DNA from: Faecousia sp. | Lineage (GTDB): Bacteria > Bacillota > Clostridia > Oscillospirales > Oscillospiraceae | Direction of reading: 5' to 3' | Length of the DNA stretch: 64,000 nt | Assembly: GCA_045586205.1 (NCBI GenBank) | Contig: JAZMZW010000149.1 | Coordinates: 4,084 to 68,083, forward strand | In this document: positions 31,904 to 57,800 of the stretch, piece by piece | How positions within the stretch are numbered: position 1 is the stretch's first letter | How the letters are laid out: every line of letters begins with the position of its first letter | Program-made: the position numbers and the translations under genes | The notes under the pieces: model-generated | Told to the model about the DNA's origin: nothing | What the model saw: only the letters and a program-made list of their open reading frames with translations | Database searches by the model: none

Positions 31904-33755
31904 TTCGGTTCATCCTTTCCAAGCTCCGAGAATTTCCCTGCCACCCTCCGATTTGCGGAAGCAGGTGGGAAGGGTTTATGCTACATTGAAATACGCAAGG
32001 GCACTGTCGGAGTAGGCAAACAGTGCCTTGCACAGGTCGCCCAAGGCGCCTGTCTTGTTGTTGCCGTAAGTATCTGCGCTGTACTGCAGGGTGCAGGACA
32101 CAGGCGTCTCTCCTGCGTAAACTTGGACAGAAACCACATTCCGCAGTTCTGCCGCCAGAAGTCCGTCAAAGGTAAAGGCGTAGAGACCGAGGGACTCACT
32201 GTATACCGTAGACTCTGTGAGGACTGTATCCATGGATTCCCCGTCCACATCCATATAGTTGATATGCAAGCTCAGAGCTTCGGGTTCTCCCTTGTAAGCA
32301 GAGCAATTTGCAATAAACTTGATCATGACCTTAGAGCCAAGATCCAGAGACTTCCCTGCCCATGTAACGGATGGATTTTCCAAATCCTCCAAAACTCGAT
32401 TGTTATTCCCGAAAGAAAGCCCATCCACATTGCTGAGGTAGCGTTTGTGTTCCTCTGTCATTGCTCCGTCCACAAGACTGTCGGCGCGGTAGTCCTTGTA
32501 GATCTGTGCCGCTGTGCCGTAGCGAAGAAGATCGGCACAAAGGGCCTTCAGTTCCTTGGATGCGGCAGGCTTGTTCAGTTGGGAATATGCATAAGTCCCC
32601 ACGCTGTATTCATCCACAGGGGAGCAATAGAGTTTCCCATCCTTCCTTCCGTAAAGAACAGAAGTCACGCAGTCATTCATCTGCACCGCAGTCAAGCCGG
32701 ACAGGGTAAAGTAATAGAAATTCCCCTTCAGCACAGGCTCCGTGCGGATGATCTTGGTCGCGGTCTTATCATGATTCTCGTATAGCTCCAATGCCGTTTC
32801 CACATAGACCGTATCCATATCGAAGCCCTCCAGATAGGGCTTGTAGAGCATAAGATTTACAGAAATATCACTTGCCAGATTCAGACTGTGGCTCAGCTTC
32901 AGGCTCTGCAATTCTTCAGGCTTTTCCTCGCCCTTGACCGTTACCTTTGCATAGGCCGGGGAGGAAACCACACAGGGCTCCAGATACTCGCCGTAGTGGT
33001 CGCAGGCTCCGTGAGTGCCGTCATCAGAGCCCAAGCCCCCGTCACACCAGAGGTAATAAGTCCCCCCGGTAGGGAAGGTAATTTCTGCATTCCCCTCTCC
33101 ATCCGTAAACGCAGAGCCTTCCGCTTCACCGAAGGTCCTGCCGTAAAAGATCTCGTAATCCGTGGCATCATAGACCCACGCCTCGCCGTACATCAAGTCA
33201 CAGAAGGAGTGCTTCAGCTTCACGGACAGAGCTTCTCCCTCCGGGACAGTATAATCATGGACATAGTTCCCCTCGGGGTCTGCAAAGAGGTGGAAGCCAC
33301 CTAACTGATCCCACAGGAAGCTGTAGCAATTAAAGCTTGCTACATCCAGGAAGTCTCCTGCCTCCAGCACGATGCGGTCGGAGGTTGCCCCTACGGTCAT
33401 AAAGTCGCTCTGTTGGCTCTCATCCACGGGGAAATCTCCGTTGAGGAAGTACACCAGATTCTCCGTAAAGCCGAAGATTCCGTCTTTAAAGTAAGAGCTA
33501 CCGGGCAGGGGGTCAAAGTCCACATCCGACCAGCTTCCCCCGTACAGTTCCTCATGGGCATAGATCAGTAGCTGCAAAGCGGTGGTGTCGTACTTCCCGT
33601 TCCCATCGGCATCATAAAGAAGCTCCTCCAGACCATAGGCTTCCAAATCCACGGCGGCTACGGCATCCAGAGGGACCGGATAGTACACAAAAGACTTTCC
33701 GTTTTTGTCCTTGATGTATTTCCCGTCAAAGCTGACGGAAAGATAAATGTATTCC
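31000..33755. repeat. Direct repeat of the N-terminal module coding region (about 31000-31815 and 32940-33755)
   Basis: For example 31501 TGAGGAAGTACACCAGATTCTCCGTAAAGCCGAAGAT recurs at 33442; near-identical over about 300 bp. Confidence 0.9.
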
Positions 33756-33844
33756 CCCTCTCCGGCAAAGCTTACAGCAGGGAGCAGAGCCCACACCATT
33801 GCAAATACCAAAAAGATCGCCAAGGTTTTTTTCATAAATTTCAT
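31976..33844 (-). CDS. Secreted protein: same N-terminal DUF4430-like/Ig module plus the conserved ~310-aa C-terminal domain
   Basis: Signal peptide; N-terminal ~280 aa highly similar to the downstream gene; C-terminus similar to genes at 47653, 50837 and 54834. Confidence 0.85.
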   Translation of the reverse strand: MKFMKKTLAIFLVFAMVWALLPAVSFAGEGEYIYLSVSFDGKYIKDKNGKSFVYYPVPLDAVAAVDLEAYGLEELLYDADGNGKYDTTALQLLIYAHEELYGGSWSDVDFDPLPGSSYFKDGIFGFTENLVYFLNGDFPVDESQQSDFMTVGATSDRIVLEAGDFLDVASFNCYSFLWDQLGGFHLFADPEGNYVHDYTVPEGEALSVKLKHSFCDLMYGEAWVYDATDYEIFYGRTFGEAEGSAFTDGEGNAEITFPTGGTYYLWCDGGLGSDDGTHGACDHYGEYLEPCVVSSPAYAKVTVKGEEKPEELQSLKLSHSLNLASDISVNLMLYKPYLEGFDMDTVYVETALELYENHDKTATKIIRTEPVLKGNFYYFTLSGLTAVQMNDCVTSVLYGRKDGKLYCSPVDEYSVGTYAYSQLNKPAASKELKALCADLLRYGTAAQIYKDYRADSLVDGAMTEEHKRYLSNVDGLSFGNNNRVLEDLENPSVTWAGKSLDLGSKVMIKFIANCSAYKGEPEALSLHINYMDVDGESMDTVLTESTVYSESLGLYAFTFDGLLAAELRNVVSVQVYAGETPVSCTLQYSADTYGNNKTGALGDLCKALFAYSDSALAYFNVA

Positions 33845-33885
33845 TGTAAATCGTCCTTTCTACATTGGGCAAGGGGTGATCCCCC

Positions 33886-34077
33886 TCAGTTTTTCTCCTT
33901 GGGCGGTTTCAGCCCTGCGGATTCCAAGGCACGGGGCCAAGGGCCGAGAAAAGCCTTAATACGGGCGCAAGTCCCACTGTCGAAATCCTTTTTTCCGGGC
34001 AACCGTCCCAATTCCTCATACTTGCGTCGCAGAAGCTCCTCCGCCCAGGCCTTCTTTTCTTCAGTTGTCACTTGCAT
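33886..34077 (-). CDS. Small 63-aa protein resembling the homing-endonuclease-associated repeat (HNH_repeat)
   Basis: EELGRLP...FLGPWPRALESAGL; AAAGGAGGG RBS; first gene after the riboswitches. Confidence 0.7.
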   Translation of the reverse strand: MQVTTEEKKAWAEELLRRKYEELGRLPGKKDFDSGTCARIKAFLGPWPRALESAGLKPPKEKN

Positions 34078-34109
34078 CCCTCCTTTGCATGAAATTCGCC
34101 TCCCACAAA

Positions 34110-34165
34110 CACAAAAGGGTGCAACCCATTTATCCCCAAGTACGGATAAATACGGTTGCACCCTC
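34110..34165 (-). terminator. Riboswitch-controlled terminator 2
   Basis: AGGGTGCAACC...GGTTGCACCCT-TTTGT on the minus strand. Confidence 0.8.
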
Positions 34166-34187
34166 CTGTCAAAGTGTGAAGACCCCA

Positions 34188-34282
34188 TCAATACAGCAGG
34201 CTCTCTGACTTATGGCATATGCCAAACACAGCAATGGACGGTTGTTTCGGCCTCTCACCGAATCACCTGACTGTACCGAATA
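34188..34282 (-). ncRNA. Short cobalamin riboswitch (class II-like)
   Basis: TACAG...CAGGTGATTCGGTGAGAGGCCGAA...ATTGCTGTG...AAGTCAGAGAGCCTGCTGTA: T-loop hairpin and B12-box-like 3' end, no large P6 extension. Confidence 0.7.
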
Positions 34283-34302
34283 TTCGATTTTTCTTTTTGA
34301 AG

Positions 34303-34346
34303 CAAAGAAAAAACTGCAACAACTCCACATAGAGTTGTCACAGCCG
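34303..34346 (-). terminator. Riboswitch-controlled terminator 1
   Basis: GCTGTGACAACTC...GAGTTGTTGCAGT-TTTTTCTTT on the minus strand. Confidence 0.75.
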
Positions 34347-34397
34347 TTTTTCCGCAACAAAAAACCACAGAATCTGTACTTGAAGAGGCGTGTCTGT

Positions 34398-34590
34398 CCC
34401 CCTTTAAGCAGTTCTCCTGACTTGCGGATCGACAGCACACATACAGCTTTCTCAGCTTACGCCAATGACCGACTTTCGTCTGATATGGGAGCCTCCACGC
34501 ATACAGTGGCGGTACCGTCCGAGATTCTCACTCGGTTTTCTATTCTCCTGTGAGGCTGTTACCGCGTTCACAGGCACTTACGGGGTGTAT
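34398..34590 (-). ncRNA. Cobalamin (AdoCbl, class I) riboswitch
   Basis: AAGTGCCTGTG..CACAGG, AATAGAAAACCGAGTGAGAATCTCGGACGGTACCGCCACTGTA, GTCATTGG..CTGAGAAAG, AAGTCAGGAGAACTGCT. Confidence 0.9.
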
Positions 34591-34606
34591 TCACTTACCG
34601 CAGATG

Positions 34607-34635
34607 ATGATAACACACTTCCCCCGGTTTGTCAA
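34607..34635 (-). promoter_or_regulatory. Sigma-A promoter of the B12 operon
   Basis: TTGACA-17 bp-TATCAT with extended TG. Confidence 0.75.
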
Positions 34636-34648
34636 TGGGAAAAAGGGC

Positions 34649-34677
34649 TTGCTCTGTGGGAGTTTTTAGGATATAAT
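34649..34677 (+). promoter_or_regulatory. Divergent sigma-A promoter of the NUDIX-xth-NlpC operon
   Basis: TTGCTC-17 bp-TATAAT. Confidence 0.6.
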
Positions 34678-34701
34678 ATAGAAAAACAAGGAGGATAGAA
34701 T

Positions 34702-35100
34702 ATGACAGATGTTGTTGCTGCATTGATTTTTGAAGAAGACCGTTTCATGATCTGTCAGAGACCCGCACATAAGAAGCGTGGGCTTCTCTGGGAATTTGTG
34801 GGAGGCAAGGTAGAGCCGGGAGAGAGCAAGGAAGAAGCCCTGATCCGTGAGTGCCGTGAGGAACTGGATGTGACCGTAGAGGTCGGCCCTCTGTTCATCA
34901 CCGTAGATCACCAATACCCCGACCTCCATGTTGTCCTCAGTGTATTCAAAGCCCGTATTGCACAGGGCGTACCCGTACTGAAGGAACACAATGACCTGAA
35001 GTGGATCTCCGTTTCCGAGATCCCCAACTATGAGTTCTGCCCCGCAGACGGCCCTGTATTGGAGGCTCTGCTGAACGGGGAGAAAGGAGAATCACGATGA
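34702..35100 (+). CDS. NUDIX (d)NTP pyrophosphohydrolase (MutT/NudG-like)
   Basis: WEFVGGKVEPGESKEEALIRECREEL Nudix box. Confidence 0.92.
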   Translation: MTDVVAALIFEEDRFMICQRPAHKKRGLLWEFVGGKVEPGESKEEALIRECREELDVTVEVGPLFITVDHQYPDLHVVLSVFKARIAQGVPVLKEHNDLKWISVSEIPNYEFCPADGPVLEALLNGEKGESR

Positions 35101-35861
35101 TCAAATTTATTTCCTGGAATGTTAACGGCATCCGTGCCTGTCTGGACAAGGGCTTCCGTGAGCAATTCGTCAATTTGGATGCGGATTTCTTCTGCCTGCA
35201 GGAAACCAAGGCACAGCGAGAGCAGGTGGCTTTGGAGCTGCCGGGCTATGAGCAATTCTGGTATTCCGCAGAGAAGAAGGGCTATTCCGGCACTGCCATC
35301 TTCGCCAAAAAAGCCCCTCTGTCCGTGACCTACGGTGTAGGTGTGGAGGAGCTGGATCACGAGGGCAGACTGATCTGTCTGGAATACGAGGGCTTCTACC
35401 TGCTGACCTGCTACACCCCCAATGCACAGGATGGACTGAAGCGACTGGATCACCGCATGGCTTGGGAGGATGCCTTCCGTGCCTACTTGCAGAAGCTGGA
35501 TACTGCCAAGCCCGTCATTGTCTGCGGTGACCTGAATGTAGCCCATCAGGAAATCGACCTGAAGAATCCCAAGACCAATCGTGGAAATGCAGGCTTCTCC
35601 GACGAAGAGCGCGAGAAATTCGGCACACTTCTGTCTGCCGGCTTTACCGACAGCTTCCGCCATCTGTATCCCGATGTAACGGGAGCATATTCCTGGTGGA
35701 GCTACCGTGCCAATGCCCGAAAGAACAACGCAGGGTGGCGCATCGACTATTTCTTAGTCTCCGACCGTCTGCAAGGGCTCATCAAGGAAGCCGCCATCCA
35801 CAGTGAGATCTACGGCTCCGACCACTGTCCCGTGGAATTACAGCTTGATATGGAGGTATAA
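35097..35861 (+). CDS. xth: Exodeoxyribonuclease III / AP endonuclease
   Basis: SWNVNG, CLQETK, GDLNVAH, WRIDY, SDHCP. Confidence 0.96.
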   Translation: MIKFISWNVNGIRACLDKGFREQFVNLDADFFCLQETKAQREQVALELPGYEQFWYSAEKKGYSGTAIFAKKAPLSVTYGVGVEELDHEGRLICLEYEGFYLLTCYTPNAQDGLKRLDHRMAWEDAFRAYLQKLDTAKPVIVCGDLNVAHQEIDLKNPKTNRGNAGFSDEEREKFGTLLSAGFTDSFRHLYPDVTGAYSWWSYRANARKNNAGWRIDYFLVSDRLQGLIKEAAIHSEIYGSDHCPVELQLDMEV

Positions 35862-35863
35862 GC

Positions 35864-37474
35864 ATGAAACGATTTCTTTCCCTAATCCTGTGTCTTGCCC
35901 TGTTCCTTGGCTGTGTCCCCTTTGCAAGTGCCTACAGCAATCTGGCATTCTGGGCAGAGGAGGCCGTTACCGCCATGTATGACTTGGGTCTTCTTCCCGA
36001 GTCCTTGCAGAAGGCAGACATGACCCGTGCCATCACCCGTGAGGAAATGTGTAAAATGGCAGTGCTGGTTTTCTCCAACCTCATTGGTGGCTACCCCTAC
36101 CCCGACTCCACCAATCACTTTGACGATACGAACGATTCCGACATTTGCTTCGCCTATGAGCAGGGCATTATTTCCGGCTACGGCAACGGCAAATTCGGCC
36201 CGAAGGATCTGTTGACCCGTGAGCAGTTTTTCAAAATCACCCACAACCTCATGAACACCGCCTACTGCGTTCCTCAAGCAGAGCTTGCTCCCTTGAGCAA
36301 TTTCAAAGATGGGAACAAGGTCAGCAGCTATGCCGTAGAGTCCACACAGCTTATGGTTGCCATCGGCATCGTGCAGGGCTCTAAGGGCAATCTGAATCCC
36401 AAGAGCAACACCAGCTGTCAGGAAGCTATCCTGATGTTCTTCCGTGCCTATGAATACATGACCAACTGGTTCAATGCCCAGACGGAGGAAAGCAAGCAGA
36501 TCATGATCGAAGAGCAGGGTTATTCCGGCATTGCCCCCTGGGCCATCAACTCCGTCATGACCATGCAGGAAAAGTATATGATCCCCGGCAGTCTGAACAA
36601 CTGCAACATGACCCATGCCATTACCCGTGAGCAGATGTGCTCTGTGGCAATGCTGTCCTACCGTGCCGCTACAGGCATCACCTATACCGCCAAGAGCATT
36701 AACCATTTTGATGACACCAAGTCCGCAGATGTCTGTGCCGCCTATGAGCTGGGCATCATTACCGGCTATGGTAACCGTCGTTTCGGTCCCAAGGACAATC
36801 TGACCCGTGAGCAGTTCTTCAAGATCATGGCGAACTTCATGGCAGTCATCGGCTATCCCCGTAATGACAGCAAATCCGTCTCCCTTTCTTCTTACAAAGA
36901 CGGCTCCAAGGTAGCCTCTTGGGCTCAGGCCCCCACCCGCCTGCTGATCTACATCGGCGCAGTCATGGGTGACGGCAAAAATCTGAATCCCAAGGATGCC
37001 ACCACCATTCAGGAAGCCCTGACGGTTTTCCTCCGTTGCTATAACTTCACTGTCAACTGGCAGACAGAGCATCCCGACGGAAAAGATCCCACCGCCACTC
37101 TCATGGAAGACTTGGTTGCCTATGCTCTGAGCTACAAGGGCTATCCCTATGTTTACGGTGGTAACGGCCCCAACAGCTTCGACTGCTCCGGCTTCGTGCT
37201 GTATGTGTATAAGCACTTCGGCTACAGCTTCACCCGCCGTGCCTCTACCCAGTATAATGACGGTGTCAAGGTCAAGAGAAGTGAGCTCCTCCCCGGAGAT
37301 CTGGTCTTCTTCCACAACAAGACCAGCTACATCACCCATGTAGGTCTGTACATCGGCAATGATCAGTTTATCCATGCCGCCAACCCCAGTCAGGGCGTCC
37401 GCATCGACAGCCTGACCAGCAATTATTACTCCACCCGTTATTACGGCGCATGCCGAATCGTAACGGATCAGTAA
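35864..37474 (+). CDS. SLH-domain NlpC/P60 peptidoglycan endopeptidase
   Basis: Signal peptide, two duplicated SLH blocks (GIISGYG..F.P...TRE), FDCSG...HVGLY...HA. Confidence 0.92.
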   Translation: MKRFLSLILCLALFLGCVPFASAYSNLAFWAEEAVTAMYDLGLLPESLQKADMTRAITREEMCKMAVLVFSNLIGGYPYPDSTNHFDDTNDSDICFAYEQGIISGYGNGKFGPKDLLTREQFFKITHNLMNTAYCVPQAELAPLSNFKDGNKVSSYAVESTQLMVAIGIVQGSKGNLNPKSNTSCQEAILMFFRAYEYMTNWFNAQTEESKQIMIEEQGYSGIAPWAINSVMTMQEKYMIPGSLNNCNMTHAITREQMCSVAMLSYRAATGITYTAKSINHFDDTKSADVCAAYELGIITGYGNRRFGPKDNLTREQFFKIMANFMAVIGYPRNDSKSVSLSSYKDGSKVASWAQAPTRLLIYIGAVMGDGKNLNPKDATTIQEALTVFLRCYNFTVNWQTEHPDGKDPTATLMEDLVAYALSYKGYPYVYGGNGPNSFDCSGFVLYVYKHFGYSFTRRASTQYNDGVKVKRSELLPGDLVFFHNKTSYITHVGLYIGNDQFIHAANPSQGVRIDSLTSNYYSTRYYGACRIVTDQ

Positions 37475-37662
37475 GCTTTCCCATATAATACTGTTTCTTG
37501 ATAAAATGGTTAGAAAACCATTTTATCGCAGGATAAATATCCTGCACCGCCTTAGGCGGAAGAAACAGTATTACACGGCATTTCGTGGCGGCCTTGCCGC
37601 CATGCCGCTGATAAGCGGCATAATAAAACGGTCAATCCGTTTTATTAGAAATAAGTATAAGC

Positions 37663-37712
37663 AAAAACATCACCGCAGTCTGAGTAAGCCTCGGACTGCG
37701 GTGATGTTTTTT
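37663..37712. terminator. Bidirectional terminator
   Basis: AAAAACATCACCGCAGTC...GACTGCGGTGATGTTTTT. Confidence 0.85.
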
Positions 37713-38154
37713 AGGTTTCCTCACAGGATTTTCGGAATTGCGCCAGCTTTTGATTCATAGCCTTGGTTTTCTTCCGTGTGGTCAGGTAGATCACCGCCCA
37801 GATCAGGGCATAACTCAGTAGGAAGACGGTGCTGAAGATCAGCATAGCGCGACCTTCCATGGCGAGCCAGCCGTTAAACAGGTAGATCACAAGATAGCTC
37901 AAATACAGCACGCCCCCGTGGATCAGGATGGCGGTGAGTAGAGGCAGGCGTTCCACATGATACACCGCATTGATGCCTCCTGCCACAAAGGCCAGCAGGG
38001 TCACTGTCAGCAGTTCCGAGATCACCTTGTTCACATGCAATTGGCTCACCTGCCCTGTGCAGAACAAGATCCAATAAACGATTGCCCACACCACAGGGCC
38101 GCCCCAAGCCGCAAGAAAGCCCCTGCGGAAAAAGTCCTTTATCCAAGTTTTCAT
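37711..38154 (-). CDS. DUF3021-family membrane protein (LytTR system partner)
   Basis: 4 TM segments, LIH...NGW, MNQKL; overlaps the LytTR gene. Confidence 0.8.
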   Translation of the reverse strand: MKTWIKDFFRRGFLAAWGGPVVWAIVYWILFCTGQVSQLHVNKVISELLTVTLLAFVAGGINAVYHVERLPLLTAILIHGGVLYLSYLVIYLFNGWLAMEGRAMLIFSTVFLLSYALIWAVIYLTTRKKTKAMNQKLAQFRKSCEET

Positions 38155-38594
38155 TTCCGATCTAACCTCCTTCTGATCTCCACAAGACAGCGACGGGAAA
38201 CATAGTCCCGATGTCCGCATTGGAATAGGGCATCTACCCCACCGCTGTAGGTAGGCACAAAGGCTTGGATGCAATGCTCATTGGCAAGGGTAGATTTGTT
38301 AATACGGATAAAATAGGAGGGCAAGGCTTCCTCCAGTTCATACAGTCGCCGGTTGCAACGGTATTTCTTCCCGTCCTCATAGATGGCATAGACCTTCCGA
38401 TCCTCCACAGTGATACAGTGGATTTGTCCCAGAGGCAGGGAACGTGTTCCCCTATGGTCAGATACCTCCAAGGTCTGCTCCTGTACATGGGAGCGCAGGA
38501 GCTCCTCGATTTGGCGGGTCAGTTCACTTGGGCTGTGGACATAGGCAACGATTTTTTCTTCCCCGTCGGGATCTACGATAAGTTCAAACTTCAT
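38151..38594 (-). CDS. LytTR-family DNA-binding regulator lacking a receiver domain
   Basis: RLYELEE.L...FIRINKSTLAN...YVSRR. Confidence 0.92.
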   Translation of the reverse strand: MKFELIVDPDGEEKIVAYVHSPSELTRQIEELLRSHVQEQTLEVSDHRGTRSLPLGQIHCITVEDRKVYAIYEDGKKYRCNRRLYELEEALPSYFIRINKSTLANEHCIQAFVPTYSGGVDALFQCGHRDYVSRRCLVEIRRRLDRK

Positions 38595-38607
38595 CTGTCA
38601 CACTCCT

Positions 38608-40064: not shown

Positions 40065-40094
40065 AGTTTTCCCCTCCTCCGGTGGTTTTTTCTC

Positions 40095-40162
40095 ATTATA
40101 CCACAGAAAAAAGAAAAAATCTGCCCTCTCTGCCTCATCGGTAGCAAGCCCCGCCTCATCGG
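40095..40162 (-). promoter_or_regulatory. LytTR-type promoter: direct repeat CCGATGAGGC-N11-CCGATGAGGC upstream of TGnTATAAT
   Basis: Repeats at 40132-40141 and 40153-40162; -10 box at 40095-40100; no recognisable -35 box. Confidence 0.7.
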
Positions 40163-40245
40163 CAAACCGGAGGACGTTATGAGTTATGAGTGATGTGAAG
40201 TTGAGCGTAGAAATCGGAAGTCTGCAAAACCGGAAATGGAGTTTT

Positions 40246-40278
40246 ACAAAAAACACTCCCTACGGGGAGTAGGGAGCG
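40246..40278 (-). terminator. Intrinsic terminator
   Basis: CGCTCCCTAC..GTAGGGAGTG-TTTTTT. Confidence 0.7.
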
Positions 40279-40295
40279 GAGAGTTTTGGAATGTA

Positions 40296-40778: not shown

Positions 40779-40992
40779 GAGATATACCGCCTTTCGTCAT
40801 GGTGTGAAAAAGAGTTTATCTAATTAAATTATACCATAAATTAAGTTGTTTTGCATACAAGTGATAAGCGATGCAGCTTTGCTGTGATAGGTGATGCGAT
40901 GCGTTCCACACACGCGCTGAAGGCGTGCATCACGGGCGAAGCCTGCATCACGCACGAAGTGTGCATCACGTTCCGCAAGGAACGCATCACTC

Positions 40993-41032
40993 AAAAAGAC
41001 CTCTTTCGCCCAAAAGCGAAAGAGGTCTTTTT
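40993..41032 (-). terminator. Terminator downstream of tRNA-Ser
   Basis: AAAAAGACCTCTTTCGC / GCGAAAGAGGTCTTTTT. Confidence 0.8.
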
Positions 41033-47652: not shown

Positions 47653-50600
47653 TTATCCGACGAAGTAGGCCTTTGCGCTATCGGAGTAGGCGAAGAGGGC
47701 CTTGCAGACGGTCAAAAGCTGATCGGTTTTGTTGTTGCCGTAGGTATCTGCACTATAGGTCAGGGTGTTGGAAACGGGAGTATCCCCTGCCATGACCCGT
47801 ACGGTTACAGCCGTACGAAGCTCTGCAGCAAGAAGTCCGTAATAGGAGAAAGCGTAAAGGCCGTCTTCCTCTCGATAGACTTCGATCCCTCGGAGGGTCT
47901 CGATCCGTGTTTGTCCTTTATAATCCACATAGGTGACGATCATGGACAGGTCTTCAAGGTTCCCTTGATATTTAGATAGGTCGGCAATGAACTTGATACC
48001 AACCTTGGATTGAAGATCCAGAGTCTTACCCATCCAGACCACAGATGGATCGGACAGTTCCTCTCCCACCTGATTGAGAGATCCGAAGGTCACGGTATCA
48101 AGGCCTGTCAAGTAGCTCTTCTGTTCTTCCGTCATGTTGGCATCTGCAAGGGTATCCGTCCGGTAGCCCTTGTAAGTCTGGATGGCAGAGCCGTACCGAA
48201 GGAGATCTGCACACAGGGTCTTAAGGGTCTGAGGGATAGAGGCTTTCCCCATCTGGGAATAGGCATAGGTTGCAATGCTGTAGGTATCTACAGGGGATCG
48301 GTAGTTCTGCCCATCCTTGGTGCCGTAGAGGGTCGTAGATAAGTCTGTGGTCATGTGGATAGCTGTGAGCCCCTCTAAGGTAAAGTAGTAATAGCTTCCC
48401 TTAAGCTCCGGTTCCAAAATGATCGCCCGCTCTTCCCCCTCTTCATTTCCCACATGGTCGTAGTAGCGGCACTCGGCATAAACGGTATCCATATCATAGC
48501 CTTCCATGGCTTCCACAGCGACAGCAAAGTTCACGGAAATATCGCTTGCTAAGTTAAGAGTATGCCCCAACTTCAGAGCACTGTCTTCCGTCGGTTCGGT
48601 GGGTTCGATGTATTCCACAGCACCGCAGACGCAAATCCCGTCTACAAATGCATGGTCTTTTATGATATTGGTACTGCAATAGACACAGTATGCGCTGTGG
48701 GTTCCGTCTCCCAGATCCGTGTAGCTACTGTAGCTGTGCCCCTTGTCCGGATCTGTGGCAGGGATATTATTGACATCCGTGGGGAAATACAGCACCTGAG
48801 GACCGTAGCCGGATACATAGTCTACCGTACCGATAGCCTTAGTCCACTGTCTTGTGTAATACTGGGTGATACTGTAATCTGCTGTAGCGGCATAGTCCCA
48901 CTTGGGCGTGGGCCAGAGAGCAATGTCCGGATCGATGGCCTCATAGACCACCTGTTGGACATTATTGGTGCCGTGGTGGGCGATCTGGACAATATCGCTC
49001 TTGAGGCTGAAATATTGGGTGCTGTCGGCCTTGTTGGCATCGTGGTAGCGTTTGAGCATAATGCCCGCAGACTGCGCCGCATCTCCGAGGAATAAGATGG
49101 TCTTGCTTCCCATGGTTACACGGAATACCACACTGGAGTTGTTCAGGTTATCTGCTGTCAATTGGGCGATGGTCTCATTGGTGTAGACATGTCCTGCATT
49201 GGCCTTGGTGCCGGAAAACTTGGTGGTAATGTTATCACAGCCCCAGAACAGGTCATCCACCGTCATAAGGATATCAAAATGGACATCATCAAAGTCAAAG
49301 GAAGAATTGCACTTTCCGCTGTGAACAGGATTAACGCTAACGATCCGAGTGGGATTTCCCTGCCGATCCTTTAGCAGTCCCACTTTGTTCAGGATATTTG
49401 CCACAGCATTCTTGATCTTAGTCGGGTTGGCATTATAGAAATATTTGTCTGTTTCCTCCGCCGTAGGCATACGGTGATAGAAGGTATCTACGGTCACTTG
49501 GGAAGCATATTTGTTGGCAAACTCTAACAGGACTCCGTAATGATCCCCGTGGGGATGGGTCAGGAACCAAGCATCAATATGGGGATTGGTCTCCCCCGTG
49601 ACCTTTTGTAAGTAAGAGAACATATATGCACCGTCATACTCGCTCCAACCACCATCAATGACGATGGTCTTCCCCTTCCCGGTGCGGATGACGTAGGACA
49701 TATTCTGCTGATAGTCGTTTTTATCCGTATCGGGATTGACGCAAGGGAGCTGGTGGAGGGTCGCCACTCCCGTACTGTTGGTGATGGGAGAAAGGGTACC
49801 CATGTTCATAAGATCGATGGAATAGATCATCTGCCCATCTGTCCGGGAATTTCCCTCCACGGCAAAATAGATCTTTCCGTTTAAAACTTGCAGACCGTTA
49901 ATAGAAGAAGTGCCTACATTGGCAATGGTGGCCTGACAGAGGAATTTGCCGGAACTGTTCAGCTTGCCGATCATAGGAACCACACCCTCACCGGCACCAC
50001 CGCAGGTAAAGATGGTATTCTTGTCATACAGCTCTACCCCTTGGAAAGAGCCGTTGGGGCGGACGATCTGATCGGCGCCGGATTGGGTCAGGGAATACAT
50101 GATCTTCTTCCGAGGGGCCTCCTTAGATAGGTCAACAGATTGGCTTGCATCCAGCAGCTCGTTGAGTCCCTTGGTGTCATAGCACGCATAGGTAACAGTG
50201 CCTTCCGTGGTCTGTACACGGAAGATGGTGTATTGGCTGTCGGCACAAACATTGTTGCGGTACAAGGTGCCCACACGGGAACCGTCTGTGGTCACATAGT
50301 TCAGGTGATCAAAGCGGTTCAGCTGGGTATAGGTGTAAGTCTTACCTGCTTCATAAGGCACTCTGGCCACCTGTGTGGAATAGTTGGTAGTTGCAGAGGT
50401 GTCGATCTTGCAACCTACATAGAAATACAGCTTATTGTTGTAATAGTAGCCTGCAAGGGATTCTCCGCGACCGCAGTTGTTCAGGGTCATGTGATCCCGG
50501 TAAACTGCCTTATCCCCTTGGATCTCCAATCTGGACAAGTAAGTGATGCCACTTCCCCCGTGCTGGGTTAAATATAAAGTATCACCATCTATAAAAAAAT

Positions 50601-50757
50601 TCTGAACGATAAGCCCATAGGGCAAGCCCGTGAGGGTATAGCGATACTCTGCATTGAGGCTAACGGATTCCGCAGGCATAGGAGCCGCCAACACCGTAGG
50701 AATAGGGGAAAGTAGGAGTGCCAATACCAAGAGAACCGCAAAAATTCTTGTTTTCAT
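47653..50757 (-). CDS. Secreted protein: helveticin-J-like propeller, metallo-beta-lactamase-fold (ComEC/Pce-like) hydrolase and conserved C-terminal domain
   Basis: Signal peptide; THPHGDH, NNSSVV, LFLGDA and QIAHHG MBL motifs; shared C-terminal domain. Confidence 0.82.
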   Translation of the reverse strand: MKTRIFAVLLVLALLLSPIPTVLAAPMPAESVSLNAEYRYTLTGLPYGLIVQNFFIDGDTLYLTQHGGSGITYLSRLEIQGDKAVYRDHMTLNNCGRGESLAGYYYNNKLYFYVGCKIDTSATTNYSTQVARVPYEAGKTYTYTQLNRFDHLNYVTTDGSRVGTLYRNNVCADSQYTIFRVQTTEGTVTYACYDTKGLNELLDASQSVDLSKEAPRKKIMYSLTQSGADQIVRPNGSFQGVELYDKNTIFTCGGAGEGVVPMIGKLNSSGKFLCQATIANVGTSSINGLQVLNGKIYFAVEGNSRTDGQMIYSIDLMNMGTLSPITNSTGVATLHQLPCVNPDTDKNDYQQNMSYVIRTGKGKTIVIDGGWSEYDGAYMFSYLQKVTGETNPHIDAWFLTHPHGDHYGVLLEFANKYASQVTVDTFYHRMPTAEETDKYFYNANPTKIKNAVANILNKVGLLKDRQGNPTRIVSVNPVHSGKCNSSFDFDDVHFDILMTVDDLFWGCDNITTKFSGTKANAGHVYTNETIAQLTADNLNNSSVVFRVTMGSKTILFLGDAAQSAGIMLKRYHDANKADSTQYFSLKSDIVQIAHHGTNNVQQVVYEAIDPDIALWPTPKWDYAATADYSITQYYTRQWTKAIGTVDYVSGYGPQVLYFPTDVNNIPATDPDKGHSYSSYTDLGDGTHSAYCVYCSTNIIKDHAFVDGICVCGAVEYIEPTEPTEDSALKLGHTLNLASDISVNFAVAVEAMEGYDMDTVYAECRYYDHVGNEEGEERAIILEPELKGSYYYFTLEGLTAIHMTTDLSTTLYGTKDGQNYRSPVDTYSIATYAYSQMGKASIPQTLKTLCADLLRYGSAIQTYKGYRTDTLADANMTEEQKSYLTGLDTVTFGSLNQVGEELSDPSVVWMGKTLDLQSKVGIKFIADLSKYQGNLEDLSMIVTYVDYKGQTRIETLRGIEVYREEDGLYAFSYYGLLAAELRTAVTVRVMAGDTPVSNTLTYSADTYGNNKTDQLLTVCKALFAYSDSAKAYFVG

Positions 50758-50836
50758 CCTTTTCTCCTTTCATCAAGGTACAATTATGTTACTTAGCACC
50801 GGAGTACTGAAGCATAGCTCCGGTACTCCTATAAGT

Positions 50837-53800
50837 TCAACTGAAATATGCTTTTGCGCTGTCGCTGTAGGCAAAGAGGGTCTTACAAACTTCCAGAAGC
50901 TGATCGGTTTTGTTGTTGCCGTAGGTGTCTGCGCTATAGGTCAGAGTGCAGGAAACAGGGGTGTCCCCCTCCATGATCTGTACGGTCACGGGGGTACGGA
51001 GTTCCGCCGCCAAGAGACCGTAATAGCTAAAGGCATACAAACAGCGGTTTTCCTTGTAGAGCTCCATATCCTCTAAGATCTCTGTCCGTTGGGTACCGGT
51101 GCGATCTACATAGGTGACCTTTAGGGTAAGATCCTCTTTATTGCCGGTGTAATTGGTGAGGTTTGCAACAAATTTAATACCTACCTTGGATTGGAGATCC
51201 AGAGACTTACCTTCCCAAGTGATAAGGGGCGCGTCCAATTCCGTTCCTACTTGGTTCACAGAACCGAAGGTCAAATTTTCTGTATCCGTGAGGTACAGTT
51301 TCTGCGCTTCGGTCATGTTGCGGTCGGCAAGATCATCTGTACGGTAGCCCTTGTAAACTTGAGTTGCGGAACCGTAACGGAGCAGATCGGCACAGAGAAC
51401 TTTCAGGCTATTGGGGACGGAATCCTTGCTCATCTGGGAATAGGCATAGGTTGCAATGCTGTAAATATCCGTGGGAGAATAGTAAGGCTGTCCGCCCTTG
51501 GTGCCGTAAAGCACAGTGGTCAATTCCGTAGTCATTTGGGTGGCATTGAGACCCTCTAAGGTAAAGTAATAATACTTGCCGTTGAGGACAGGTTTCAGAG
51601 TTACGACCCATTCTTCTCCCTGTTCATTCCCCACATAGGTATTATAACGACATTCGGCATAAACGGTGTCCATATCGAAGCCTTCCAGAGTAGTTACAGG
51701 AACCACAAAGTTTACGGAAATGTCGCTTGCTAAATTAAGAGTGTGGCTCAGTTTCAGGGTGCTGTCTTCGGTCGGTTCCACAGATTCTACTGCACCGCAG
51801 GTACACACGCCGTCTGTATAAACATGAGGTTCTGATGTATATTGAGCGGTAATGAGCGTTTCTGCAACAACTCCTGTCAATGCCTTGTCCCAACCTGCAA
51901 AGGTGTAGTGATAGATTTCGTCACATGGCTTGGTGGGAATCGTTCCGCTGTAAATGGCGGTGTCCCCTTCTGCTACCTGCTCTGTAGAAAGGACAGTGCC
52001 GTCTTCGTTTTGGAAGGTGACGGTGTACAGAGGATCCGGGAGAGTCGCCTTGGGTCCGATGTAGAAATAGTCTACCTCAATGATGCCTTCTCCCTCCTTG
52101 GGCGCCAAATTGTTGATGTAAATACGGAGAGATTGGATCTCGGATTCTTCAATAAAGAAGGAAGGCATGGGTACAGTCACAGTAAAGTAACCGCTGTCAA
52201 TCATGGAAGCATCGTAGTTATGTCTCAGCAAGGGATTATAGTAGAAATCCGTCCGCGCCGCACTGGCGTATGCAATGCCGATGGAAAGAGGCAGGGTCTT
52301 GTCGTTGGCCTCGGCATTGTCAATGCGGATCCTCATCTGCAGATAATCGGTCCGGGAGGGCTTATAGCTCAGGGGACGCTCACTGACGGTAGTTCCCGTC
52401 TGGATATAGTGGTTACCGGCCTCTTTCACACGGGCGATCATGGTTGCGTTGAGAGGATCAAACCACGCACCACGCATAGAAGCAGTACGGGCAAACCATT
52501 GGGTGTTATCATAGTTTACATATCCGTATTTCTCGGTCATGTACCGCATCTCGTCGGTGTCACGATCCGTAAAATCGAAATACAGATAGTCCTTCTCGGG
52601 CAAATGCTCCTTGGGGCCGATATAGACTTCATCAATGGTAATGGAGGCGGTCTTGCCGGTAACGGGAGCAAGATTGGTAAAATACAGGCGGAAGGCTGTG
52701 ATCTCACTTGCATTTACAAAGGTGCTGTTCATGGGCAGAGTGATGACAAAATACTGCCCGTTAAACTGTTCTTCCGTAATGGTTTGGGTCACTCTTGCGC
52801 CGTAGTCGAAGTCTTCCTTTCCGGGGTGTTCATAGACGATACCGGCGGTCATAGAGGTAGTAGCGTCATTGGCGGTGACGTTGGAGATCTTCAGACGCAT
52901 CTGGAAACAGTCACCCTCTTGGGGGATGTAATGGAGGGGTCTGTCCCCTACTACAGTGCCGGTCTGGATATAGTGGTTGCCACCGGCGGTGAGGCTCACG
53001 GTCATGGTTCCGGCGGTATTATCGAGGTTTGCACTGCTCATAGAGGCAGGTCTGGGGAACCAGTTACCGGTGTCATAATTGAGACTGCCATAGATCCGAT
53101 CCTGATAGCGGAATCTCGCAAGTCTCTCGTTGGCAAAGCCAAAGTACATCCCACGGGTAAAGCGGAAGGCATCCAGTGCTACGGTGCCGCTAAACTTCAG
53201 ATAGACCGTATGCTTACCGGGGGTCACATTGGAGATCTTTACCTGTGCAGAGGTGTAGCTTGTGCTGTTAAAGCTGACTGTTCCCACCTTGTTAGCCGCC
53301 GCTGTTCCATCAATGTAGGCAGTAACGGTACAGCTTGTACCGGCGGCCTTGGCGGTAAAGATGTTCTCCGTGCCGTCAAATTCGATATCCTTGTAAATGA
53401 GGGTGTCGATCTTTGTCAGATTGGAAACAACCTTGTTTTTGCCACTGTTCCAATCCTCGGGAACCGAAAAGCCGAAGGTGTCAAAATTGTAGCTTGTAAA
53501 GTGCTCTGCATCAATGCGGTCGGAGGCAGAACGAATACGGTACCGTTCCTGAATGTAGTTAACCAGAGGCCCCGGACGATCCGTCATAACTCCCGTATAG
53601 CCGATATCAAAGAGGTCTGCCCAACCGATCTCACAGTCTACCTTAGCATTTGCGCCCATATAGCTGGGGTCTCCTGTATTGCAACGGAGATAGATCCCCT
53701 GCTCTCTGCAGTAAGGAACCAAGGTATTGCGGATATGATCCTCGTTGGAATCGCTGACACCGGCGGCAAGTCCCAATACACGAATCCCCGCATCCAGAAG

Positions 53801-54610
53801 TTTCTGAATATTTGCAGGCTTATTGTTGTTGTACTCAAAGGAAATGGATGTCTTTACTTCTTCCACGGTCACAGGATCGGAGGGGTATTTCTTATTCCAC
53901 AGCTCTGCCCCTGCATCAAACCAGGGTTCTAACTGGGACAGATTATAATTCCCCTTGAATACCACATATTCCACCATATCCCATTCCCTTGCGCAAACAT
54001 ATGCATGGGCGAAGCTGTCAGCTGTAGTGATTTTATCCATTAGGAGGAAGGCTTGCTTGTCGACCAGCTCCAGAATGGAGTCAAAACGGGAAATGGGCAT
54101 AGTCCCTCCTGCCTTGGCAGTGCCAACATTGGCAACATAGGTAGGAAGGGAGTTAAGAACCTTAGCATCCTCGGCAGTGAGGATATAGGGGGTTCCGGTA
54201 TTCCCCATACCATCTTCCAGTGTATACTTCTTCGCCTGCGCCCAAGTGATCTCATTGATATAAACTAAGGTATTTGCATTGGTCATGCGTCTCAGATTAT
54301 CATCGTGGAGAGCAACAGGGACACCGTCCTTGGTTACATGGAAATCTACTTCAATGATGTCAACACCCATGTTCAGACAGGAATTGATACCCAGAATGGA
54401 AGCCTCAGGAAAATTTCGCCAGTCGGTCTTATGGGAAATGGCCATAGGGATCCCACGCTTTATTTTCTCCCACAGAGGCTGAGTACCAAAGGAAGGAACC
54501 GCATAGTTCCCCTTGGTCTCCGGCTTCTCCTCCGGAAGCTCCGCCGCAAACACCGGCACAGCCCCTAAAAGGAGGCAAAGACATAATAAAATCGCAAAAA
54601 TCCGTTTCAT
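50837..54610 (-). CDS. Secreted glycerophosphodiester phosphodiesterase with CBM6-like domain, 2 CBM-like repeats, B-repeat-like domain and conserved C-terminal domain
   Basis: SHKTDWRNFPE, IEVDFHVTKDG..VALHD, MTDRP; IDAEHF...GKHTVYLKF CBM6-like domain; start at MKRIF. Confidence 0.85.
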   Translation of the reverse strand: MKRIFAILLCLCLLLGAVPVFAAELPEEKPETKGNYAVPSFGTQPLWEKIKRGIPMAISHKTDWRNFPEASILGINSCLNMGVDIIEVDFHVTKDGVPVALHDDNLRRMTNANTLVYINEITWAQAKKYTLEDGMGNTGTPYILTAEDAKVLNSLPTYVANVGTAKAGGTMPISRFDSILELVDKQAFLLMDKITTADSFAHAYVCAREWDMVEYVVFKGNYNLSQLEPWFDAGAELWNKKYPSDPVTVEEVKTSISFEYNNNKPANIQKLLDAGIRVLGLAAGVSDSNEDHIRNTLVPYCREQGIYLRCNTGDPSYMGANAKVDCEIGWADLFDIGYTGVMTDRPGPLVNYIQERYRIRSASDRIDAEHFTSYNFDTFGFSVPEDWNSGKNKVVSNLTKIDTLIYKDIEFDGTENIFTAKAAGTSCTVTAYIDGTAAANKVGTVSFNSTSYTSAQVKISNVTPGKHTVYLKFSGTVALDAFRFTRGMYFGFANERLARFRYQDRIYGSLNYDTGNWFPRPASMSSANLDNTAGTMTVSLTAGGNHYIQTGTVVGDRPLHYIPQEGDCFQMRLKISNVTANDATTSMTAGIVYEHPGKEDFDYGARVTQTITEEQFNGQYFVITLPMNSTFVNASEITAFRLYFTNLAPVTGKTASITIDEVYIGPKEHLPEKDYLYFDFTDRDTDEMRYMTEKYGYVNYDNTQWFARTASMRGAWFDPLNATMIARVKEAGNHYIQTGTTVSERPLSYKPSRTDYLQMRIRIDNAEANDKTLPLSIGIAYASAARTDFYYNPLLRHNYDASMIDSGYFTVTVPMPSFFIEESEIQSLRIYINNLAPKEGEGIIEVDYFYIGPKATLPDPLYTVTFQNEDGTVLSTEQVAEGDTAIYSGTIPTKPCDEIYHYTFAGWDKALTGVVAETLITAQYTSEPHVYTDGVCTCGAVESVEPTEDSTLKLSHTLNLASDISVNFVVPVTTLEGFDMDTVYAECRYNTYVGNEQGEEWVVTLKPVLNGKYYYFTLEGLNATQMTTELTTVLYGTKGGQPYYSPTDIYSIATYAYSQMSKDSVPNSLKVLCADLLRYGSATQVYKGYRTDDLADRNMTEAQKLYLTDTENLTFGSVNQVGTELDAPLITWEGKSLDLQSKVGIKFVANLTNYTGNKEDLTLKVTYVDRTGTQRTEILEDMELYKENRCLYAFSYYGLLAAELRTPVTVQIMEGDTPVSCTLTYSADTYGNNKTDQLLEVCKTLFAYSDSAKAYFS

Positions 54611-54833
54611 AAACAAACTCCCTTCTATCTCCCGATTTCGGGAAAATAGCTATAAAATAACTATATCATACCATGAAATAAAACGCAAGAAATGTTTCCC
54701 AAATCACAGTTTATGAGTGATGAACCGTCCACCGACACCCTCATAGGTCCCTACAGTAAATTTGATGCTTTGTGCTGAAAAACCGAACAGAGGCATCCCC
54801 TGTCCCGGTATTCGATATATTTTCGGCTAATTT

Positions 54834-57800
54834 TCAATTTGTAAAGTATGCCTTTGCACTGTCGCTGTAAGCAAAGAGTGCCTTGCACAGTTCCAGCAGA
54901 GCGCCGGTCTTATTGTTGCCGTAGGTATCGGGGCTGTAGCAGAAGGTGGAGGACACAGCTTGTTCCCCTTCAAAGATCTGTACGGAAAGCACCTCTCTCA
55001 GCTCCGAAGCAAGGAGGCAATCTACGGTGAAGGAATACATACTGCGAGACTCACTGTAGGGCTGAAGCTCCGTCACGGTGACAGACATACTCTCTCCGAA
55101 GTTATCCCTGTAGTTGACCTTCATGGAAAGATCCTCAAGCTTCCCTGTATACGCAGCCAGGCTGAAGATGAACTTCAGAGACACCTTGGAGTCCAGAGAC
55201 AGACTTTTGCCGATCCATGTCACAGAGGGCTCAGCCAGATCTCCCAGGTCCCTGTTGGTCTCCCCAAAGGTCACCGCCTCCAAATCCGACAGATGGGACT
55301 TGTGTTCCTCCGTCATATCTCCATCCGCAAGGGCGCTGAGACGGTACTCTTTATAAACCTGTGCCTTGGAGCCGTAGCGCAGAAGGTCGGCACACAGGGT
55401 CTTGAGACCTGCCGGAACAGCTCCGTTCCCCTTATTCAACTGAGAGTACGCATACTTTGCCACGCTGTACAGATCCGTATTGGAATAGTAGGGCTGTCCG
55501 TCCTTTTCTCCATACAGTACGGAGGAAACCGTATCATTCATCTGCACCGCCGTAATACCTGTAAGGGTGAAGTAATATAAAGCCCCATTTTTTACCGGCT
55601 CTATACGCACGGACTCTGTTCCCAGCAAAGTCTCACCCTCGTAATTCTCAATGGTGCTGACCAGATAAACCGTATCCATATCATAGCCTTCCAGCATGGT
55701 TACGGGAACAAGGTAATTGACGGAAATATCGCTCGCCAAATTCAGGCTGTGGCTGATCTTCCATCCGCTTTCCAACAAGGGCTCTTTCTCTTCCGGCTCA
55801 CCGCAGATACACAGGCCATTTTCATAGCTGTGCTTCACCTCAAGGAAGCGGGCGGTAAAGACCGTGTCTTTACGGATATTTTCAAGGCTCTTATCCCAGC
55901 CTTGGAATACATAGTGGTGTACTCTGTCATGTGCCTTTGCAGGGGTTTTCCCGGAATAGGCCGCCGTATCTCCCTCTTGCACAGAGACGGTTTCCAAAAT
56001 CTGTCCGTCTTCATTGCGGAAGGTCACGGTATACAGAGGCAAGGGCAGGCTTGCCTTGGGGCCTACATAAAGATAATCTACGGTCAGGGACAGATTTTCC
56101 CCTGCTGCATTCTTGACATAAGAAAGCTGAGGACGGAAGCAGGAGATCTCATGGGCGCTCTTGTACTTAGCATGGCTCATGGGGAAGGTCAGGATGAAAT
56201 ATTCCCCATTTCCGTACTGCTCCAAAGAAAAATCTTTATAGCCGGAAGCCACCACAGAAGTTTCCCCGATGCCGAAATACAGGCTGAATCTGGCTGTACC
56301 GTTGGTCTTTGTGCTCACGGCATTTTCGATCTTCAGCCGTACCTGACAGTAGTCCTCCTGTCCCGGACGGAAGGCCAAGGGATATACGTTGTGTGCAGGG
56401 CCACTGTGGAAGTAGTGATCCGTCCGGCTGTCCAACTTGGAATACAGGCTCATGGTTCCCCCTTCTGTCACAGGAGCAGTGGCGTAGGTGGAATTTGTCC
56501 ACCAGCTTTCCGGCAAATCGGGATCGGTATTGCCGTAAAGCTTGTCCTTGTAACGCTCCTGCCCTACAAGATCCCCGTTGAACTCCGCCAGATAATAGGC
56601 ATCCCGTGCAGGCAAGTCTTCTTCCCAACCGATGTAAAGATAATCAATGCTGAAGCGAAGCTGTTCCCCCTCCGCACTTGTAACATCGGAGATCTGAGGA
56701 CGGATGCTGACGATCTGAGGGACGGAAAGATAATTCTTGCTGTCCATGGGGAAGGTGATCGTTGCCCAACCGGCATCCATATACTCTTCCACAGGAAGCT
56801 CCACATAGTCGGAGCCTGCGGAGTTGTTATCCTTTGCGCCGTAAAGCAAGCCCAGACGGATCAGACCCTTGCTGTTGGTGCAGATACCGTTTTCCAAGCG
56901 GATACGCATTTGACACAGATCACCCGCCTTTGGGATGTACTGCAAGGGATACACCCCGAAGGTCTCACAGCTCAGAGCATAGTGCACTGTGGAGGTAGAG
57001 CCCTGAGAGGCTGTGAGGATCAGCACCCCATTTTCCACCTTGGGAGCTTCATCGTTGTTGGAGTTTGTCCACCAGCTTTCGGGGCTGTCCAAATTCTTCT
57101 CTCCGTAGACCTTGTCCCCATAGCGCAGATGGTCGTCATAGGTATCGGTGAAGTCTGCAAAGAGATTTTCCTCCCTTGCGGGAGCAGTGCTTTCCGGCCC
57201 CACATACAGATAGTCTATGTGGAAGGTCACACTCTCCCCCTCTGCGGAGTTCAGACGTCCAAACTGGAAGCGCAAACTGCTGATCTTCTCTCCGGAGAGA
57301 TATTTTTCACTGTCCATGGGGAAGGACAAGGTCACATAGCCCTTGTCGGAAAGCTCCTCCACGGAAAATTCCACCTGATCGTAGCCTGCCGTAGCATTGC
57401 TCCCCATGCCGTAGTACAGTTGGAACACTCCCTTACCGCTGCTTTGGCTACATACTCCATGCTCCACAGAGAAACGGAGCTTGCAAATATCACCCTCCTT
57501 AGGTGTATAGTTCAGGGGGAAAACATTGTGCGTCCATGCACTGTGGATATAGTGGTTGTTCCGTCCCTCTGCATTGGTGGAAGCAAAGGTCAAGATCCCT
57601 TTGTTCACCGTAGGCTCTGTGGCATAGCTTGGATTTGCCCACCAGTTTTCGGGATCGTCGAAATCCGTATTGCCGTAGGCACTGCCTGCATAACGGATCC
57701 GATCCTCTGCACCTGCCTCAAAGTCAAAGAACAAAGAAGTCTGCTCGGGAAGTAAGTCATAGGAACCTACATAGAGGTAGTCCACCGTTAGCTTCCCTGC

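Follow-up and report, generated by a model that had tools for sequence, protein, structure and literature searches.

The carbohydrate-binding module CBM37 of Ruminococcus albus is a species-specific, C-terminal module that occurs in 51–102 copies and has been reported to attach enzymes to the wall carbohydrates of the producing cell (Ezer et al., 2008, cited in PMC4081043). Triplets of the surface-layer homology domain (SLH, PF00395) likewise act as terminal, non-covalent wall anchors on diverse secreted proteins; the type I dockerin (PF00404), partner of cohesin (PF00963), is a modular tail that localises many enzymes; and the C-terminal domain of the type IX secretion system (T9SS) of Bacteroidota (TIGR04183) is an Ig-like sandwich carried by scores of unrelated secreted proteins per genome. 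Here, a common C-terminal domain of ~305 residues (CTD) is described, which closes four genes in a stretch of 64,000 nucleotides (the window) from a Faecousia sp. genome (contig JAZMZW010000149.1, positions 4,084–68,083). The CTD represents a domain family that is new and unnamed and belongs, by function, to a known kind; its scale is what chiefly sets it apart, and it may well be a lineage-specific module for non-covalent retention of proteins at the cell surface.

Uncultured Faecousia and their relatives among the Oscillospiraceae abound in the gut communities of ruminants, pigs, poultry and humans. In the clade that carries the CTD in high number, almost a fifth of the genome consists of giant secreted proteins closed by this one unannotated domain. 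Naming it would better annotate thousands of proteins, all of them labelled hypothetical, and would mark the surface proteome of the organism, comprising glycosaminoglycan (GAG) lyases, phosphodiester-cleaving enzymes and BspA-type adhesins.

Four secreted proteins of the window share a C-terminal domain

Translation and alignment placed the CTD at the end of four minus-strand genes, which encode proteins of 622, 1034, 1259 and 2411 residues. The domain begins at residues 319, 732, 958 and 2107, respectively, with the motif H(S/T)LNLASDISVN, extends over 302–305 residues to the stop codon and finishes with the motif AYSDSA.AYF, the conserved end lying 0–3 residues from the stop in all four. 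The copies are 54–59% identical to the first one, mean column identity is 73%, and 155 of the ~318 columns of the four-sequence alignment are invariant; since the upstream parts of the proteins are unrelated, this likeness is far above chance. An earlier, sequence-only reading of this DNA had claimed the same C-terminal domain for four secreted proteins with differing passengers. The translations and the alignment bear this out, with the domain coordinates correct to within a few codons (Table 1).

The 1034-residue protein combines a beta-propeller-like N-terminus with a metallo-beta-lactamase-fold (MBL) hydrolase, the 1259-residue protein a GDPD phosphodiesterase with CBM6, further CBM-like modules and a Listeria-Bacteroides repeat, and the 2411-residue protein a three-domain PL8 polysaccharide lyase with repeated CBM-like modules. 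Pfam confirms the metallo-beta-lactamase fold, GDPD (with CBM6) and PL8, whereas the head of the 622-residue protein, earlier read as a putative B12 head, matches no Pfam family. A signal peptide is evident in all four proteins. As had also been claimed, known anchors are missing from them: Pfam and a motif scan found no SLH (E ≤ 0.1), no dockerin (PF00404) and no LPXTG motif in the four, and CWB2 (CW_binding_2, PF04122) had no match in these proteins or anywhere in the genome.

Table 1. Positions of the features discussed, within the window unless another genome (G), contig (C) or locus (L) is named; G000 is the genome of the window
Feature	Position	Strand	Remarks
CTD copy 1 and linker	31976..32935	-	End of 622-residue secreted protein 31976-33844; genome-search match G000:C149:36068-37015, E 1e-178
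Passenger of 622-residue protein	32936..33844	-	Signal peptide and ~310-residue head, no Pfam family
942-residue context paralogue	29075..31903	-	Same head as 622-residue protein; type I dockerin in place of CTD
CTD copy 2	47653..48609	-	End of 1034-residue protein 47653-50757; copy used for the structural model
Cys/His-rich mini-module H-x-[YF]-x-x-G-x-C-x-C-G and acidic/Pro linker	48610..48690	-	Directly precedes CTD copy 2
CTD copy 3	50837..51790	-	End of 1259-residue protein 50837-54616
CTD copy 4	54834..55796	-	End of 2411-residue protein 54834-62069
NlpC/P60 peptidoglycan hydrolase	35864-37474	+	SLH-anchored; between CTD genes
CTD gene without terminal stop (L150)	G000:C48:3048-7034	-	Frame continues beyond CTD
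CTD protein with pseudomurein-binding repeats (L146)	G000:C192:14666-18142
CTD protein with pseudomurein-binding repeats (L152)	G000:C158:3651-7967
RiPP-like cassettes	G000, outside window: C16:7516-8658; C4:28564-30574; C187:594-2660; C57:18525-19394; C118:17029-17745		Five paralogous cassettes
Half-module protein (L134)	L134:993-2531 (G352)		Family other than that of Faecousia
Half-module protein (L135)	L135:2273-3688 (G408)		Family other than that of Faecousia
~3,950-residue secreted protein (L118)	L118:593-12430 (G235)		CTD-like domain at about residues 2284-2586
CBM37 comparison sequence (L157)	L157:1150-1479	-	Last 110 residues of R. albus 7 pRUMAL02 xylanase

One CTD closes each of a large family of secreted proteins

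The genome of the window (G000) is a metagenome-assembled genome (MAG) of 3.03 Mb in 245 contigs, estimated to be 86% complete. A six-frame search with a profile hidden Markov model (HMM) found 153 open reading frames (ORFs) with a CTD. In 124 of them the protein has a single, full-length copy of the domain, and most of the remaining 29 are contig-end fragments. In 123 of the 124 full-length carriers the conserved end lies 0–4 residues from the stop codon. A Sec-type signal peptide was recognised by a hydrophobicity heuristic in 104 of the 112 complete carriers. The carriers are large (median 1,446 residues, maximum 3,573), and those with a full-length CTD total 184,122 residues, or ~18% of the 3.03 Mb genome.

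Passengers were surveyed by Pfam on 17 randomly sampled carriers and by precomputed Pfam assignments on 120 homologues. They include MBL hydrolases, NAGPA phosphodiester glycosidases, GDPD enzymes, EEP nucleases or phosphatases and metallophosphoesterases; PL8 and heparinase-like (heparinase II/III-like) lyases and M4 and M20 peptidases; and transglutaminase-like domains, BspA-type leucine-rich repeat (LRR) adhesins and a cohesin. Because the passengers are so diverse, a shared role in location fits the CTD better than a shared substrate.

Around two thirds of the CTD copies are preceded by Cys/His-rich mini-modules and an acidic linker of the KEPVLD type. Genome-wide, the strict motif H-x-[YF]-x-x-G-x-C-x-C-G stands before 59 of 120 copies and C-x(1,2)-C-G lies within 70 residues upstream of 81 of 120; in the window, direct reading found equivalents of the mini-module and linker of copy 2 just upstream of copies 3 and 4 as well. 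The repeat pattern of this stalk is PTCT..G....C..C......H.Y.......H...C..C......H.[YF]..G.C.CG. The mini-modules, which match no Pfam family and are possible metal binders, also occur upstream of the SLH triplet in an enzyme of a sister species (L160).

The lone exception to the C-terminal rule is a gene (L150) without a stop after AYSDSAQSFF, in which the frame continues from the CTD into a thermolysin-type propeptide and an M4 peptidase. This gene is either an in-frame fusion or an assembly chimera.

The CTD takes the place of known anchors on homologous passengers

The genome encodes 41 SLH proteins and ~5 LPXTG proteins, together with sortases, and none of these proteins carries a CTD. 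The terminal motif of the CTD, for its part, is not accompanied by a hydrophobic segment. The head of the 622-residue protein is 75% identical (231 of 310 residues, BLASTP) to that of its 942-residue neighbour, which ends in a type I dockerin instead (Pfam Dockerin_1, 26.2 bits against a cut-off of 22.9). Three dockerin matches were found in the genome, in ORFs of 1882, 944 and 1946 residues. Among the SLH proteins, 15 of 29 show similarity to the passengers of CTD proteins over at least 150 residues, and in one adjacent pair of an SLH gene and a CTD gene the passengers are 50% identical across 734 residues. In genomes of the same genus that lack the CTD, giant NAGPA enzymes close with three SLH repeats (G212) or with wall repeats of the choline-binding type (G234). 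On such homologous passengers, the CTD is interchangeable in position with SLH repeats, choline-binding-type repeats and dockerin. In addition, the strongest cohesin match of the genome is a protein built of signal peptide, cohesin, LRR and CTD, and the cohesin proteins that bear a CTD or a single half of it (see below) show no other recognised anchor.

The gene of an SLH-anchored NlpC/P60 peptidoglycan hydrolase between the CTD genes shows that classical anchoring through SLH domains operates at this locus too. Compensation between the two systems was considered and set aside; the numbers of SLH and CTD genes across the genus show no inverse relation, a rough impression that is based on unconfirmed first-look candidates.

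The domain is built of two related halves

The sequence-only reading had divided the domain into two related halves of ~150 residues, and profile–profile comparison agrees with it. In an alignment of 32 paralogues, hhalign matched half 1 to half 2 with a probability of 94% (E 1.2e-7, 25% identity across 122 columns), pairing YS.A.YAYSQ..K...LCADLLRYG of the former with YSADTYGNNKT..L..LCKALFAYS of the latter. Since the comparison aligns both halves, the CTD is, on sequence grounds, best described as an ancient tandem duplication of a unit of ~150 residues comprising a sandwich and a helix.

An AlphaFold2 model of CTD copy 2, built on the same 32 paralogous sequences, reached a pLDDT of 92.5 and a pTM of 0.86. 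In the model, half 1 forms a beta-sandwich (residues 15–110) followed by helices at residues 112–121 and 127–147, a connector of ~30 residues leads to half 2, and half 2 forms a second beta-sandwich (residues 179–286) with a terminal helix (residues 296–317). Structural matches of either half were generic FN3, Ig and CBM56-like sandwiches with a best Z-score of 8.4. With VIA-align, half 1 gave Z 8.2 to the FN3 domain of the IL-6 receptor (root mean square deviation 2.7, 97 aligned residues) and Z 7.0 to CBM56, and half 2 gave values from 7.8 to 6.1, all of them generic and within noise. Foldseek against the PDB with the whole CTD returned only generic FN3, Ig and CBM sandwiches at TM-scores of ~0.2. 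Thioester, isopeptide and cohesin structures are absent among the matches listed by the two programs, a listing that does not exclude them.

The CTD is acidic (median pI 4.6, net charge ~-15) and rich in Tyr (7.8%), and many Tyr, Asn, Asp and Lys residues are invariant. Among 123 paralogues the median identity is 50% and 35 columns are at least 95% identical. A thioester domain, an idea that arose from the sequence LCAD and conserved Gln residues, was dropped: no thioester-domain family of Pfam was matched, the distance between Cys and Gln within their common helix is too large, and in the subfamily of another genome (G121, below) a different residue replaces the second conserved Cys. Prediction of a homodimer from two CTD copies gave a score of 0.00 against a mark of 0.42, which speaks neither for nor against a dimer.

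The CTD is expanded in one clade and varies from genome to genome

The reading of four proteins holds for the window but falls far short as a measure of scale, as the family has ~125–150 members in the genome and 6,146 cluster representatives in a public library of 1.84 billion representative proteins (E ≤ 1e-3; 737 at E ≤ 1e-30). The domain is C-terminal in all of the best 150 library matches. Named relatives are without exception annotated as 'hypothetical protein' and come from MAGs of Oscillospiraceae; loci related to the CTD region come from Faecousia and other Oscillospiraceae MAGs of animal and human guts.

Within the genus, 30 of 55 genomes gave a CTD match. The expansion is restricted to one Faecousia clade, in which around ten species have 80–168 first-look candidates each, and several complete genomes have none. 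Matches were found in 10 of 201 genomes (8 of 134 genera) of the family and in 24 of 301 genomes (11 of 30 families) of the order, the latter with 1–7 divergent copies each. In these distant relatives the CTD is mostly C-terminal, sometimes directly follows the signal peptide and is sometimes internal. In two small secreted proteins from other families (L134 and L135), the signal peptide leads directly into a single half-module, behind which come Flg_new repeats, LRR and, at the C-terminus, a cohesin; these architectures show that the half-module of ~150 residues is a functional unit by itself. Moreover, a conserved secreted protein of ~3,950 residues (L118) contains an internal CTD-like domain, downstream of which lie a WbsX/GH99-like domain and then a Cu_amine_oxidN1 domain. 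It has orthologues in four further genomes (G224, G226, G223 and G105), and in all five genomes this protein holds the sole CTD-like domain. The ancestral host of the CTD may have been a protein close to this one.

In another genome of the genus (G121, loci L162–L166), the CTDs are 86–98% identical among themselves; for six carriers the range is 86–96%, whereas their 180 residues upstream are only ~22% identical to each other. Compared with the CTDs of the window's genome these domains are only ~28% identical, and the Cys of the last helix is missing from them. Together, these values indicate that the CTD of G121 is a homogenised, genome-specific variant. Such genome-matched variants are what one would predict if a single lineage-specific partner had to accommodate every copy in a cell. 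The paralogues of the window's genome are older than those of G121, and concerted evolution is not supported among them, the median identity to the best paralogue being 63% against 67% to the best foreign match.

The CTD resembles CBM37 in kind but not in sequence

Searches of Pfam, NCBIfam, the PDB and Foldseek assigned the CTD to no named family and to no characterised other function. A search of PDB sequences with the CTD profile gave no match at E ≤ 10, none was found by tblastn in 72,556 plasmids, and in the ESM Atlas the domain matched only unnamed Bacillota clusters. Literature searches on Faecousia turned up community surveys alone, with no mention of the CTD.

The closest likeness is to CBM37, also a lineage-restricted, beta-sandwich-type C-terminal module on many unrelated secreted enzymes, sometimes in tandem and almost never together with dockerins, and one from the same bacterial order. 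The CTD is high in copy number (124 full-length, 123 of them terminal), lineage-specific, C-terminal and attached to unrelated secreted enzymes. Yet CBM37 is only ~100 residues long, against ~305 residues with two sandwiches and three helices in the CTD, and its passengers are plant-cell-wall CAZymes, whereas the CTD is found chiefly on phosphodiesterases, GAG lyases and LRR adhesins. Comparison of the 32-sequence profile with one CBM37 sequence, taken from the GH11-CBM22-GH10-CBM37 xylanase of R. albus 7 plasmid pRUMAL02, gave an hhalign probability of 0.25% (E 0.24); a GH11 search of the plasmid pRUMAL01 had found no match. As no sequence similarity is detectable, the CTD would resemble CBM37 by analogy of function and architecture and not through family membership.

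SLH repeats are found in the C-terminal position of the CTD on passengers homologous to its own and, like the CTD across its wider family, can be N- or C-terminal. They differ in their helical fold of three ~55-residue repeats, show no sequence match to the CTD and in the window's genome never occur in the same protein. The dockerin, whose specificities towards cohesin are genome-matched in the way that the CTD variants seem to be, is a Ca-binding pair of EF-hands of ~60 residues without similarity to the CTD in sequence or fold, and no receptor equivalent to cohesin was found for the CTD. The T9SS domain is shorter (~80–100 residues), serves translocation across the outer membrane of diderms and is cleaved, whereas the CTD belongs to a member of Bacillota and is N-terminal or internal in relatives.

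Proposed surface retention and its alternatives

We hold with moderate confidence that the CTD is a lineage-specific, non-covalent cell-surface retention module. The domain is terminal, is present in single copy on proteins with signal peptides, excludes SLH and LPXTG anchors and is interchangeable with anchors on homologous passengers, all of which speaks for the part of the sequence-only reading that saw in it a surface anchor or docking module. Architecture, copy number, exclusivity and positional equivalence are observed; that the CTD binds, that it does so non-covalently and which type of ligand it recognises, we infer. The N-terminal signal peptide would direct Sec export of the enzymes and adhesins, and the terminal CTD, its two FN3/CBM-like sandwiches packed together by the helices, would then bind the cell envelope non-covalently through a component present all over the cell surface. 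The Cys/His-rich stalk and acidic linker would push the catalytic or adhesive head outward. The common component would most likely be a wall-associated glycopolymer, as the fold, similar to that of CBMs, and the conserved polar and aromatic residues suggest; a surface protein is a less likely candidate. If anchoring is correct, the CTD would add a further class of surface retention in Gram-positive bacteria to SLH, CWB2, LysM, GW, choline-binding repeats and CBM37, and its genome-matched variants would provide a natural system for the study of co-evolution between a display module and its ligand.

Several points weigh against surface retention. The CTD is acidic, whereas many modules that grip anionic wall polymers are basic, and the generic structural matches carry no information on function. 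The cohesin argument is not exclusive, as scaffoldins carry substrate-binding CBMs too, and with SLH anchors already abundant in the genome the need for a second wall anchor is not obvious. Examination of CTD neighbourhoods yielded no ligand or receptor gene, no partner being specifically enriched except a RiPP-like cassette (described below). Finally, the host is uncultured, and its incomplete MAG has many contig breaks within CTD genes.

The alternative that survives best, although we consider it rather unlikely, is that the CTD is a dockerin-like docking module for a dedicated surface receptor, which could be a scaffold, a protein of the S-layer or a receptor anchored by SLH, and not for a wall glycopolymer. 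A protein receptor stays plausible because the variants are genome-matched, in the manner of species-specific cohesin–dockerin pairs, and because an acidic CTD would suit a basic protein partner; the very high conservation over the whole domain and the occurrence of the same head with either a dockerin or a CTD point in the same direction. Set against this, no candidate receptor was found, the RiPP-like cassette being present in CTD-free genomes too, and ~150 clients would demand a very abundant receptor. In a bolder version, which we put forward as a tentative idea of low probability, the CTD would be the client half of a genome-matched surface-display system, in which ~150 proteins dock on one co-evolving receptor or lattice as an enzyme coat and each lineage has its own homogenised variant. 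Such a coat would stand in for a cellulosome or S-layer and would do without cohesin–dockerin pairs, and the homogenised variant of each Faecousia lineage would keep the proteins on the cell that produced them.

It is distinctly unlikely that the CTD directs its passengers to an outside target, for example host mucus or glycans, food particles or other microbes, and does not tether them to the producer. The CBM/FN3-like halves match CBM56, GNBP3 and the carbohydrate-binding domain of Wzt at Z 6–7, the sequence is rich in Tyr, scaffoldins bear substrate CBMs, and CBM37 itself binds many polysaccharides (PMC4081043); many passengers, moreover, act on polymers that belong to the host or to other cells (PL8, GDPD, NAGPA and the proteins with pseudomurein-binding repeats). 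A single specificity is nevertheless hard to rationalise for nucleases and phosphodiesterases, lyases, proteases, LRR adhesins and a cohesin protein alike, genome-specific homogenised variants fit a self-encoded partner better than an environmental ligand, and homologous passengers in relatives bear true wall anchors in the position of the CTD.

Finally, a strict C-terminal sorting or secretion signal that is recognised and perhaps cleaved or covalently linked (compare the T9SS domain, autotransporters and sortase substrates), the sense in which the earlier term 'sorting module' is weakened, is very improbable because relatives carry the CTD internally or N-terminally, right after the signal peptide, and because its final helix, which the model packs with confidence, shares homology with a helix inside half 1; the single copy per protein, the strictly terminal position in the expanded clade (stop 0–4 residues past AYSDSA.AYF) and an Ig-like sandwich fold as in T9SS domains would suit such a signal, but two CTDs and one full protein matched no sorting-domain model of NCBIfam, including TIGR04183, at E ≤ 1, the Bacillota host uses Sec signal peptides and has no evident second membrane, and no co-distributed machinery was seen.

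Neighbouring genes, expression and passenger content

The genome encodes five paralogous cassettes resembling those for ribosomally synthesised and post-translationally modified peptides (RiPPs), four of which directly flank CTD genes. Each consists of an HprK-related/ScmC-like P-loop protein (~285 residues), a radical SAM/SPASM enzyme and a small Cys-containing peptide beginning MKKSYFKP. A homologous cassette follows the gene of the ~3,950-residue protein with the internal CTD in four sister genomes (L112, L113, L116 and L117). As a partner of the CTD the cassette was rejected, its family being present in 44 of the 55 genomes of the genus, CTD-free ones included.

Metatranscriptome contigs contain short, near-identical pieces (170–407 nt) of the MBL and GDPD genes, for which DNA carry-over is possible; they give a weak hint that these CTD genes are transcribed.

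The passengers are rich in phosphodiester-cleaving enzymes (NAGPA, GDPD, EEP, metallophosphoesterase and MBL) and in GAG-type lyases (PL8 and heparinase II/III-like), and this content suggests that the host of the CTD scavenges polymers of the host matrix and of microbial walls and capsules. Two CTD proteins (L146 and L152) contain pseudomurein-binding repeats paired with an MBL hydrolase or a GHL10-type glycosidase, which hints that some of the CTD enzymes with such repeats target the cell walls of methanogens.

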